Below are positions 44,991 to 50,729 of a DNA stretch of 64,000 bases, in pieces. The notes under the pieces are model-generated. The model had not been told where the DNA came from. It searched no databases and was given only the letters and a program-made list of their open reading frames with translations. Made by a program: the position numbers and the translations under genes. The DNA lies in contig JAUVXV010000009.1 in NCBI GenBank assembly GCA_030603365.1, positions 1 to 64,000 on the forward strand, in the 5' to 3' direction. The stretch is from Candidatus Heimdallarchaeota archaeon (GTDB taxonomy: Archaea; Asgardarchaeota; Heimdallarchaeia; Heimdallarchaeales; Heimdallarchaeaceae). Position 1 is the first letter of the stretch. Each line of letters opens with the position of its first letter.

Positions 44991-45527
44991 GTGATTCATT
45001 TGTCTAAGAGAAACTATATTACAAATAAGATCGTTCTAATAGGAGATGCAAGAGTTGGAAAGACCTCTCTAGTTAGAAGATTCGTTACTAATATGTTTGA
45101 TCCTTCCTATAAAATAACTCTGGGTACAACAATTATGAAAAAAGAACTTGAATATCTTACTAACAATGTGATACTAGCAATTTGGGACATTGGAGGACAA
45201 GAGGTTTTCAGACAAATTAGAAGTAAATACTTCTTTGGAAGTAAAGGGGCTCTTGCAATTTGTGATGCTTCTAACCTTGAATCTTATAACAATCTATCTT
45301 CTTGGGTTGAATCCTTCAGAAAAGAAGTTGGAGATAAACCTATCATTTTTCTAGCAAATAAATGTGACTTAAAGAATTTAGAAGTAACTGAAGAACATAT
45401 GAAGAAAATAGTGGAAACTTACAAAAATACAGAATTCATGTTTACTTCAGCGAAAGATGGAACTAATACTGAAAAAGCCTTTACTAATCTTACTAGACTC
45501 ATGGTCGAAGAAGAGGATATAATCTAA
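44991..45527 (+). CDS. Rab-like small GTPase
   Basis: GDARVGKTS, TLG, WDIGGQ, NKCD, TSAK; no C-terminal Cys. Confidence 0.92.
   Translation: MIHLSKRNYITNKIVLIGDARVGKTSLVRRFVTNMFDPSYKITLGTTIMKKELEYLTNNVILAIWDIGGQEVFRQIRSKYFFGSKGALAICDASNLESYNNLSSWVESFRKEVGDKPIIFLANKCDLKNLEVTEEHMKKIVETYKNTEFMFTSAKDGTNTEKAFTNLTRLMVEEEDII
45461..45527 (+). repeat. Direct repeat copy 1 (Rab gene 3' end)
   Basis: 56/67 identical to 46738-46804 by manual alignment. Confidence 0.88.
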
Positions 45528-47289: not shown

Positions 47290-47386
47290 TTGATAATGTT
47301 TATGATTAGTAATAAAAAAAGCTAACTATCGAAACTTGAACCAAGTAAAAAAATTTTTAAAACTTACATATATGAAGAAGATAATT

Positions 47387-47461
47387 GCCCCGATAGTATA
47401 GCGGCTAGTATTGTGGATTGTGGCTCCATAGAGGCAGGTTCGAATCTTGCTCGGGGCACCA
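47387..47461 (+). tRNA. tRNA-His(GTG), CCA encoded
   Basis: Acceptor GCCCCGA/TCGGGGC, anticodon arm GTGGA-TTGTGGC-TCCAT, T arm GCAGG-TTCGAAT-CTTGC, ends ACCA, followed by a T-tract. Confidence 0.96.
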
Positions 47462-47545
47462 CTTCTTTTTCTAAACAGCATTCTCAAGTAAATTAGGAAA
47501 GTTTAAAGCGGAGTAATTTTCAGTTTTAGATGTCGAAGTGATAAT

Positions 47546-48052: not shown

Positions 48053-48583
48053 TTAATCTCTATTTTCAATGCTTGTGAGTATCTGGTCACCCATTGCAAG
48101 AAATGCATCAGCGACATTTGTTCCATTTTTAGCAGAGGTTTCAATGAACCCTATGCAACCAGAATCTTCAGCAAATTTCTTACCTTCTTCAGTAGATACA
48201 TCTCGTAAATCTTCTAAATCGTTTTTATTACCAACAAGCATAAGCATAATGCGAGGACTTTCATTTTGAGCTTCTTGTATCCATGTCTTAAGATTTTCAA
48301 AAGATTGACGTCGAGTAATATCGTATGTTACAAGAGCTCCTAAACTGCCTTTGAAAAAGATTTGTCTCATTGAAGCAAAACGGTCCTGACCTGCAATATC
48401 CCACAATTGAAGGCATATTCTTGTGTCTTTGATTGTTTCAAATCTTGAATATGGTTCCATTCCTATTGTCATTAAATATCCAGCTTGGAATTTATTGTGG
48501 ATGAACCTTTGTACAAGACTTGTTTTCCCAACAGCCCCATCTCCAAGTAATAAAATCTTGAATGTATATTTGTAGCTAGTCAT
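48053..48583 (-). CDS. Rab-like small GTPase
   Basis: GDGAVGKTS, TIG, LQLWDIAGQDRF, LVTYDIT, GNKND, ETSAK. Confidence 0.94.
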   Translation of the reverse strand: MTSYKYTFKILLLGDGAVGKTSLVQRFIHNKFQAGYLMTIGMEPYSRFETIKDTRICLQLWDIAGQDRFASMRQIFFKGSLGALVTYDITRRQSFENLKTWIQEAQNESPRIMLMLVGNKNDLEDLRDVSTEEGKKFAEDSGCIGFIETSAKNGTNVADAFLAMGDQILTSIENRD

Positions 48584-48779: not shown

Positions 48780-50729
48780 ATGTTAGTTCAAATGATTGAC
48801 CCAGATAATCTAGATTTCAAAGAATTAGGTTTTCATGCAGGACTAGAAGTACACCATCAAATACGTACAAAGAGAAAACTTTTTTGCAACTGTCCTCCAA
48901 TACTTGAAGAAGATCCTGAAAATATGGAATATAGTTTCTATAGATACTTCAGACCTGTTCTAGGGGAAATGGGAGATTTTGATCCTGGTATGCTAGTCGA
49001 ATTTGAAAAAGGGTATAAAGTTATTTACCTTGCAAATGAGAAAAATACTTGTACATATGAAATGGATGAGACTCCACCTTTCTTTCCAGATATGGAAGCT
49101 ATTGAAAAGGGGATCATTTTATCTGCATACTTCGATTGTTCTGCTTATGCTGAAGAGGTTGTTGTAAATAGGAAACAATATCTTGATGGTTCAATCACAA
49201 CTGGTTTTCAACGCACTTTTATCTCAGCTCGAGATGGTTGGGTTCCTGTAAATGGCAAAAAAGTCCGAATCACAAATGTGCATATTGAAGAAGATGCTGC
49301 TCGAAGAGTAAATTGGGATGACACTTCTAGTAGAACGGTTTACTTCAATCTTGATAGATTGGGTATGCCTTTGACTGAAATTATCACAGAATACACAGAT
49401 GTAGACACACCTGAAGAATTAATTGAAACAGCTAAGCAAATTGGAAGAGTTTTAAGAATAAGCAAAATAGGAATAAGAGGGTTGGGAGCAGCTAGACAAG
49501 ATGTAAATATAAGTATAACTGGGGGAGATAGGGTCGAGCTAAAGGGAGTACAAAATTTAGATCACTTTGACATAATGTGTCGTCATGAAGTTGTGCGACA
49601 GTACACTTTGATTGAGATCAAAGAAGAAATGCTGAAGAGAGAAATAAAAGAAGAGGATTTTGAACACACCTATGTTGATATTAGTCACCTCTTCAATGAT
49701 GACAAGAAATATTTTGCATCTATATTTCCAAAAATGAAGGGTCTTTTTGGATTAGAAGTTCAGCCAAATAAGGACTTTGGAGAAGAGATCTTTGAAAAGA
49801 GTATGTTAATTACTGGTCTTCCGAGGGCTAATCATTTCCACAGTGATGAATTGGATGAGAATGCTGTTAGGAAACGATCAAAATATCCAAGCAGTTTACC
49901 GATCAATAATGAAGTTATCACTAAAATTTTCACAATACTAAATCCAAAAGAGTCAGATGCTTTGATTATTATTGCAGGTCCAGAAAAAAGTGCAATACAT
50001 GCAATGAAAAAGGTTGTAGAACGAGTTAAAATGGCTTTAAAAGGTGTCCCTCAGGAAACTCGAAGGTATGTATATGACGGAAACTCTGAATTCTTGAGAG
50101 TGATTCATGGTAAAGATAGAATCTATCCTGATACTGATACTCCACCAGTAGTCATATCTCTAGAGAAAATTTTCGACATAATCGGTAAAATTGGAAAACG
50201 TCCTTGGGAAGTTTACGTTGAATTGAATGAAAAATATCAATTTGACCAAAACCATGTTGATTTGTTAATAAGGGATGAGAAACTTGATAAATTCTACAAC
50301 ATGGTTGATGATCTAGGTTTAGACGAACATTTAACCTACAGGCTTCTAATAGATCTACCTAGAGAAAAAAGAAGAAAAAACATTAAGATTACTGAAAAAT
50401 TAATTGAAAAACTTGCTCTGTTATTCTCTAATAATACAATTCTACTCGAACAACTAGAGTTAGTTCTCCCTATACTACTTGAAAATCCAAATATCAGTGA
50501 TGAGGAACTCAAAGTAAAAATAGGCTTCAAAGAAATAACATCTGAGCAATTAGATAAGATAATTGATAATCAGATAAAACTTTTTGGTAAAGATAATTTT
50601 GTTTCTTCAGAAGATAAAAAGCGCAATCTCCCAAGAATTGTTAATCAAGTTTTAAATGAATGTAATTATTCTATTAAAGGAGAACAAGTTGCGAATAAAA
50701 TAAATTCACTTTTGAAGGAGGTAATTTAA
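48780..50729 (+). CDS. gatE: Glu-tRNA(Gln) amidotransferase subunit E
   Basis: GLEVHHQ, KLFC, DGSITTGFQRT, EEDAAR, LDRLGMPL, RQDVNISI, RIYPDTD. Confidence 0.95.
   Translation: MLVQMIDPDNLDFKELGFHAGLEVHHQIRTKRKLFCNCPPILEEDPENMEYSFYRYFRPVLGEMGDFDPGMLVEFEKGYKVIYLANEKNTCTYEMDETPPFFPDMEAIEKGIILSAYFDCSAYAEEVVVNRKQYLDGSITTGFQRTFISARDGWVPVNGKKVRITNVHIEEDAARRVNWDDTSSRTVYFNLDRLGMPLTEIITEYTDVDTPEELIETAKQIGRVLRISKIGIRGLGAARQDVNISITGGDRVELKGVQNLDHFDIMCRHEVVRQYTLIEIKEEMLKREIKEEDFEHTYVDISHLFNDDKKYFASIFPKMKGLFGLEVQPNKDFGEEIFEKSMLITGLPRANHFHSDELDENAVRKRSKYPSSLPINNEVITKIFTILNPKESDALIIIAGPEKSAIHAMKKVVERVKMALKGVPQETRRYVYDGNSEFLRVIHGKDRIYPDTDTPPVVISLEKIFDIIGKIGKRPWEVYVELNEKYQFDQNHVDLLIRDEKLDKFYNMVDDLGLDEHLTYRLLIDLPREKRRKNIKITEKLIEKLALLFSNNTILLEQLELVLPILLENPNISDEELKVKIGFKEITSEQLDKIIDNQIKLFGKDNFVSSEDKKRNLPRIVNQVLNECNYSIKGEQVANKINSLLKEVI

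Follow-up and report, generated by a model that had tools for sequence, protein, structure and literature searches.

Background

An extra 5' guanosine, G-1, marks tRNA-His in nearly all life. Reviews describe C73 as the rule for archaea (PMC3245924). Archaeal Thg1-like enzymes carry out a templated addition, need C73 to add G, and would add U opposite A73 (PMC3245924, PMC3061083). The change from C73 to A73 has been placed by Heinemann et al. in early eukaryote evolution (PMC3245924), and for this reason the finding of A73 in Asgard archaea is notable. In the complex formed by the histidyl-tRNA synthetase (HisRS) of T. thermophilus, G-1 is hosted in a pocket formed by Gly72-Gly73, and the G-1-less Caulobacter features two Asp residues there (PMC4357726). 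The role of the anticodon as identity carrier has been measured in Caulobacter (PMC3064791), and in T. brucei and Acanthamoeba (PMC4338351). Here we analyze a tRNA-His(GUG) gene residing at positions 47387-47461 (+ strand) of a 64-kb window, by which we mean the whole stretch of 64,000 nucleotides from contig JAUVXV010000009.1 of a Candidatus Heimdallarchaeota archaeon, and discuss how its product may be charged. Nothing relevant on tRNA-His and G-1, HisRS or Thg1 of Asgard archaea was found in the literature, in a search covering few subscription papers.

A tRNA-His gene with A73 and no encoded G-1

The strands of the acceptor stem, GCCCCGA from 47387 and TCGGGGC at 47451-47457, are followed by the discriminator A73 at 47458 and by an encoded CCA end at 47459-47461, and the base at 47386, corresponding to position -1, is T instead of G. 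This had been the core of a sequence-only reading of the window, and is confirmed: A73 without an encoded G-1 is a real feature of the gene. The element is the single tRNA gene identified by ARAGORN in the window, and matches Rfam RF00005 (55.3 bits, E 3.5e-9) with a 7-bp acceptor stem, which includes the G1:C72 pair, and A73 unpaired. It carries no intron, and folds into a cloverleaf exposing a GUG anticodon (47420-47422), followed by G37 and plausibly acting as the main identity element. The minimum free energy folding z-score, -1.2, is uninformative. The register of A73 is fixed because the CCA end is encoded, which rules out a misregistered acceptor stem. A sequencing or assembly error at 47458, which would have undermined the observation, is ruled out as well, since the gene is identical in six other genomes, and A73 is kept in 27/27 genes parsed in the family. 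No second, canonical tRNA-His was found in the 3.65-Mb assembly, which is 89% complete, and the gene is the sole His decoder found. The D arm and anticodon loop had also been likened to those of eukaryotic cytosolic tRNA-His. The corresponding strings are present, but the likeness is not specific to eukaryotes, since U13/G22, G37 and the 4-nt variable loop are also seen in C73 archaeal tRNA-His; the start of the D arm is also found in tRNA-Glu of a relative.

Distribution of A73 and G-1

In the following, G000 denotes the present genome, other G numbers other genomes, L numbers loci, and f numbers families. The host had been taken for an Asgard archaeon, and in agreement with this its closest named HisRS homologues are from Heimdallarchaeaceae; Heimdallarchaeum aukensis and H. 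endolithica, whose genomes are closed, belong to the host family. Other families were named via their proteins: f5 corresponds to Hodarchaeales (G070 is Hodarchaeum mangrovi), f6 to Gerdarchaeales, f12 to Hermodarchaeia, and f19 contains Promethearchaeum syntrophicum, Lokiarchaeum ossiferum and Harpocratesius repetitus. The labels of f3 (Kariarchaeaceae-like), f7 (a second Hodarchaeales family), f31 (Thor) and f33 (Wukong) are inferred.

tRNA-His genes were surveyed in 400 Asgard genomes by a pattern that left positions -1 and 73 unspecified, integrated by targeted top-up searches; a loose pattern search yielded mainly noise. The 76 genes parsed have to be taken as a sample, because many tRNA-His genes with unusual introns were missed. 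A73 is found in 50 genes, where the -1 base is T in 32, A in 16, C in one and G in one, so that G-1 is not encoded in 49/50. Among the 25 C73 genes, 24 encode G-1, and the exception, G309, encodes Thg1, an established way for archaea to acquire G-1. U73 occurs in one of the 76 genes. The tabulation, which the sequence-only reading had proposed as a check, thus reveals that A73 pairs with a missing G-1, and C73 with G-1. A73 is fixed in f1 (27/27), f3 (6/6), f4 (2/2), Hermodarchaeia (3/3) and f19 (8/8), and also in f6 and f21; of two f17 genomes, one has it. G-1:C73 is found in Hodarchaeales (7/7), f8, f9, f10, f15, f18, f20, f24-f26, f28, f31 and f33. The A73, G-1-less state is present in the cultured Promethearchaeum and Lokiarchaeum. 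The sole f2 genome (L241, G031:C30) features U73 and A-1; its HisRS, encoded 6 kb away from the tRNA gene, is highly divergent, with RDEDTKRTR as motif 2.

The nature of the -1 base deserves attention. RNase P could cut one base early, keeping the encoded base in an 8-bp stem closed by U-1:A73, and HisRS could mainly read the position of the phosphate, accepting any base at -1. The predicted fold does pair U-1 with A73, T-1 is the prevailing state of the A73 genes (32/50), and the A. pernix HisRS takes both A-1 and C-1 (PMC9976931). Yet A-1, found in 16/50 A73 genes, cannot pair with A73, and the room for an extra base is filled in the HisRS pocket, as described below. Moreover, T is the most frequent -1 base in the leaders of G000 tRNAs (20/41) and is found in 10/25 of the other A73 tRNAs of this genome, hence T-1 represents background. 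We consider early cleavage very improbable.

A73 would be less telling if it were widespread in archaea outside Asgard, but this is not so in the Thermoplasmatota and Nanobdellota samples, where it is rare (0/47 and 0/50, respectively). C73 is present in 47/47 intact Thermoplasmatota tRNA-His genes, and in 49 genomes of the Nanobdellota sample, where two genes have U73, and A73 is found only in the centre genome, picked for having A73. For Thermoproteota, Halobacteriota and Methanobacteriota, which are outside these samples, C73 is taken from the literature. A GTDB-wide scan provided examples, not frequencies: among the matches listed, Patescibacteria account for many A73 genes, and Thermoplasmata, Nanohaloarchaea and Woesearchaeota for a few, and most of them carry an encoded G-1. 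A73 is therefore not unique to Asgard archaea, but among archaea its lineage-wide fixation without G-1 is seen only there.

Many Patescibacteria tRNA-His genes (within L091-L205, for example L098:1622-1696 and L101:622-696) carry both an encoded G-1 and A73, so that the genome itself encodes the eukaryote-like mature pair. A few genes from Nanohaloarchaea, Woesearchaeota and Thermoplasmata (L142, L145, L150, L160, L163, L189, L139) have A73, an incomplete encoded CCA, and mostly G-1; L139 features C-1 and a very divergent HisRS of 515 aa. L123 and L127 are clear integration-site remnants, and the same may hold for some of these A73 genes lacking a full CCA.

Search for Thg1

The Thg1 domain PF04446 was identified in 16/400 Asgard genomes, and the control match in Methanosarcina was obtained. 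No match was found in 83 Heimdallarchaeia (two closed genomes included), 19 Hermodarchaeia, 14 Promethearchaeaceae (f19) and four f21 genomes; in other words, Thg1 was found neither in G000, at 89% completeness, nor in the 82 other genomes of the class. A custom profile of Asgard Thg1-like proteins was run against the six frames of G000 without any real match. The best one (E 0.013) is noise, and a hidden Thg1 was discarded. A phage-like tRNA array (L051:1500-1645, L046, G307:C1), including tRNA-Trp and a tRNA-His with T-1 and C73, has a Thg1-like gene at a distance of about 8 kb; it is possibly a mobile element, or a contaminant, supplying its own G-1 addition.

A lineage-specific HisRS

G000 has one hisS gene, located on contig C3, which encodes a protein of 499 aa (P0001); the tRNA-His gene resides on a different contig, and no second HisRS was found in the genome. 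Long-type HisRSs of about 500 aa are encoded by 71/77 genomes of five A73 families (f1, f3, f4, f6 and f12), and by 0/323 others, and form one clade (Shimodaira-Hasegawa-like approximate likelihood ratio test, SH-aLRT, 99). The G-1 pocket of these enzymes is altered. By sequence alignment, Glu75-Glu76 of G000 stand at the Gly72-Gly73 positions, where both Heimdallarchaeum species have Asp-Asp. Among 102 long-type clusters, Gly-Gly is found in none, and both pocket residues are charged in 77. The 129 nearest other HisRSs retain at least one pocket Gly in 112 cases and carry two charged residues in three, and a pocket Gly is found in 19 of 23 Asgard C73 genomes. Insertions within the pocket loop are present in the HisRSs of P. 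syntrophicum, L. ossiferum, f21 and G128.

Motif 2, RDETPQRGRVKE, features Thr at the position of T. thermophilus Arg115, which is weak evidence, since G-1-using archaea vary at this site. The motif 2 loop had been indicated as a place where changes might be sought, and there the Arg115 site is changed, while Gln and the Lys/Arg at the Arg122 site are kept. The predicted HisRS model (predicted local distance difference test, pLDDT, 87.7) has a normal HisRS fold, and the structures of T. acidophilum and Trypanosoma are the nearest. About 65 extra residues, modeled as helices near 195-245, would be located in the insertion domain. In the T. thermophilus enzyme the insertion domain touches the 3' strand of the acceptor; as a guess, the insert could play a role at the acceptor end.

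A73 lineages fall into three separate HisRS groups, and a tree uniting every A73-linked HisRS in a single clade is rejected (approximately unbiased test, p-AU 3e-5). The Hermodarchaeia HisRS groups with that of Gerdarchaeales (98), and in Hermodarchaeia hisS follows the tRNA-His gene directly; together, grouping and adjacency suggest transfer of the pair. Asgard HisRSs at large belong to at least four unrelated subfamilies, discordant with the host tree, which implies repeated replacement of the gene. The tRNA-His gene is found directly beside hisS, or within 10 kb, in Hermodarchaeia, G128, G401, G054, G136 and L. ossiferum (L280, L263, L369, L294, L245, L246).

How tRNA-His may be charged

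Gene sequences, distributions, motif changes and the HisRS tree point to G-1-independent, anticodon-guided charging of tRNA-His, a reading to which we assign a probability of roughly 75%. A candidate archaeal TATA box (T5A4, preceded by an A-run) is found at 47354-47362, 31-33 bases upstream of G1, and G000 encodes an archaeal RNase P RNA (163 bits); the transcript is therefore expected to have a short leader, cleaved in the normal way. Leaderless transcription without RNase P was ruled out, as the RNase P RNA is present and TATA distances differ among tRNAs. RF00373, the archaeal RNase P RNA model, found no match in the closed L. ossiferum genome (G137) and a sub-threshold one in P. syntrophicum, and the RNA is probably divergent rather than absent in L. 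ossiferum.

In the model we favor, tRNA-His would be transcribed with a short leader and cleaved by RNase P at the usual +1 site. No G-1 would be added, and the mature tRNA would have G1 as its first base, an acceptor stem of 7 bp, and A73. Charging would be carried out by the lineage-specific HisRS of about 500 aa (P0001), in which charged side chains plausibly occupy the G-1 pocket and the GUG anticodon is read, possibly with the assistance of the 65-aa helical insert placed beside the acceptor end. The tRNA/HisRS pair would have a single origin, later than the split of Hodarchaeales and earlier than the divergence of Heimdallarchaeaceae, Kariarchaeaceae-like families and Gerdarchaeales, and was probably transferred into Hermodarchaeia as a tRNA-hisS unit. 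Promethearchaeaceae and relatives, which employ other HisRSs, would have come to this tRNA state on their own. Of the two options put forward by the sequence-only reading, a G-1-independent HisRS fits the absence of Thg1 and the loss of pocket glycines; non-templated Thg1 activity does not, as Thg1 was not found.

The relative G028 is instructive. Its tRNA-His and both its tRNA-Glu genes have A73, and do not differ anywhere in the acceptor stem or at positions 8-16. Nothing encoded at the acceptor end tells them apart and, without G-1, the anticodon must carry identity. The ambiguity would also be resolved by G-1 added opposite A73 after RNase P cleavage, either by a very divergent Thg1 or by an unrelated guanylyltransferase, the HisRS remaining G-1-dependent. 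Guanylation by an unidentified activity has been reported in plant mitochondria (PMC3245924), and motif 2 retains the Lys/Arg that binds the phosphate. Such addition is nonetheless unlikely, as Thg1 is found in 0/83 Heimdallarchaeia, closed genomes included, by the same search detecting it in 16 other Asgard genomes, the custom profile has no real match in G000, and the pocket glycines are gone in all long-type HisRSs.

Several observations weigh against G-1-independent charging. Both pocket glycines are missing in 4/23 C73 enzymes, one is retained in three A73 enzymes of the Promethearchaeaceae family, and the G-1-independent T. brucei HisRS retains Gly-Gly. Motif-2 contacts to G-1:C73 are partly kept, Gln119 being invariant and Lys/Arg124 occupying the site of T. 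thermophilus Arg122. The His/Glu problem of G028 is equally solved if an unknown enzyme adds G-1, and the assembly in which Thg1 was sought is 89% complete. Finally, counts come from related genomes, and independent contrasts are about three or four.

Relation to the eukaryotic system

The idea that the eukaryotic His system arose within Asgard archaea, advanced by the sequence-only reading, is unsupported. Heimdallarchaeaceae share only A73 with eukaryotes, as no Thg1 was found and the HisRS is probably not G-1-dependent; G-1:C73 persists in Hodarchaeales and in Asgard lineages that branch deeper, and the long-type HisRS is of a subfamily other than the human one. With the long HisRS profile, the scores are 367 bits for T. 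acidophilum, 302 for Trypanosoma and 212 for human HisRS, and a member of the subfamily including the Hodarchaeales enzymes scores 201 bits against human and 141 against T. acidophilum. The HisRS tree includes no eukaryotic sequences and subfamilies were assigned by scores against PDB sequences, a further caution for our reading, so that the comparison with eukaryotes rests on these scores and on tRNA distribution.

A73 could still be homologous to the eukaryotic state, if inherited from a common ancestor with Heimdallarchaeia and reversed in Hodarchaeales, eukaryotes having regained G-1 via Thg1. A73 is fixed in three of four Heimdallarchaeia groups, the long HisRS scores high with the trypanosome enzyme, which is eukaryotic and G-1-independent (PMC4338351), and reversion of one base is possible. 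Hodarchaeales have been placed either as sister to eukaryotes (PMC10307638) or as the first branch in Heimdallarchaeia (PMC12222021), and in both cases they would have to regain G-1 as well as C73, found in 7/7 genes. Moreover, the likely Wukong outgroup has G-1:C73, human HisRS is closer to the Hodarchaeales-type subfamily (201 vs 141 bits), and the A73 state recurs independently within Asgard. Homology appears quite improbable. Doubtful too is the broader notion that the Heimdallarchaeia A73 tRNA-His is a direct eukaryotic precursor, a G-1-independent stage preceding non-templated Thg1, or that G-1 is added by a new enzyme family. Since A73 lineages have unrelated HisRSs, the switch recurs, and the likeness to the eukaryotic state is most likely convergence.

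Surroundings of the gene

A T5 run at 47466-47470, shortly 3' of the CCA end, is a candidate archaeal terminator. The adjoining genes are a DUF2122 gene on the opposite strand and, downstream, a cytidylyltransferase-like one; neither is related to tRNA handling. The region is flanked by genes for two small GTPases of the Ras family, and by one of the GatB/GatE family (window 44991-45527, 48053-48583, 48780-50729). Within the family, tRNA-His is interrupted by a 37/38 intron of 15-32 nt in some genomes, and by none in others, including G000 (L017, L019-L026, L033). Degenerate tRNA-like genes with encoded CCA are found in G000 (C1:51927-52003, C13:71399-71475, C13:319739-319845), one having an 8-nt anticodon loop, and no clear tRNA gene for Pro, Phe or Asn was obtained with ARAGORN in the assembly.

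Comparison with known systems

No earlier case was found of archaea losing the near-universal G-1 identity element, and the A73 state, fixed without G-1 in several Asgard lineages, would be the first. It shows that the identity switch is easy, and was repeated near the root of eukaryotes, and offers several natural contrasts on how the recognition rule of a synthetase changes. The state is testable in the cultured P. syntrophicum and L. ossiferum, and may furnish orthogonal His pairs, like the Caulobacter one. The system is most likely an archaeal variant of the kind known from Alphaproteobacteria and a few eukaryotes, convergent with eukaryotes.

The tRNA body resembles that of the canonical archaeal G-1:C73 system, in which G-1 is encoded or added by a templated Thg1-like protein, in U13, G29:C41, the 4-nt variable loop and G37. 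Most Asgard lineages keep this system, but both identity bases are lost here. With the canonical eukaryotic system, relying on A73, non-templated G-1 added by Thg1 and a G-1-dependent HisRS (PMC3245924), the gene shares A73 and the lack of an encoded G-1. In contrast, Thg1 was not found here, the HisRS is without pocket glycines, and its motif-2 loop reads ETPQRGRVKE where human and yeast enzymes have Ala-Met-Thr. The systems of Trypanosoma brucei and Acanthamoeba castellanii are closer, as they combine a G-1-independent HisRS with A73, a Watson-Crick 1:72 pair and no Thg1 (PMC4338351). The trypanosome enzyme is the second-best solved relative of P0001 by sequence and fold, but keeps Gly-Gly, tolerates G-1, and is only about 25% identical to P0001. 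The pair of Caulobacter crescentus and related Alphaproteobacteria is alike in A73, in lacking encoded G-1 and Thg1, and in a co-varying HisRS with acidic replacement of Gly-Gly (PMC3064791; PMC4357726). It differs in having G1:U72 rather than the G1:C72 found here, and Gly118 for the motif-2 Gln (PMC4338351), which is the invariant Gln119 in our set. The present pair belongs to an archaeal host, and its HisRS is Thermoplasma/trypanosome-like, with an insert of its own.
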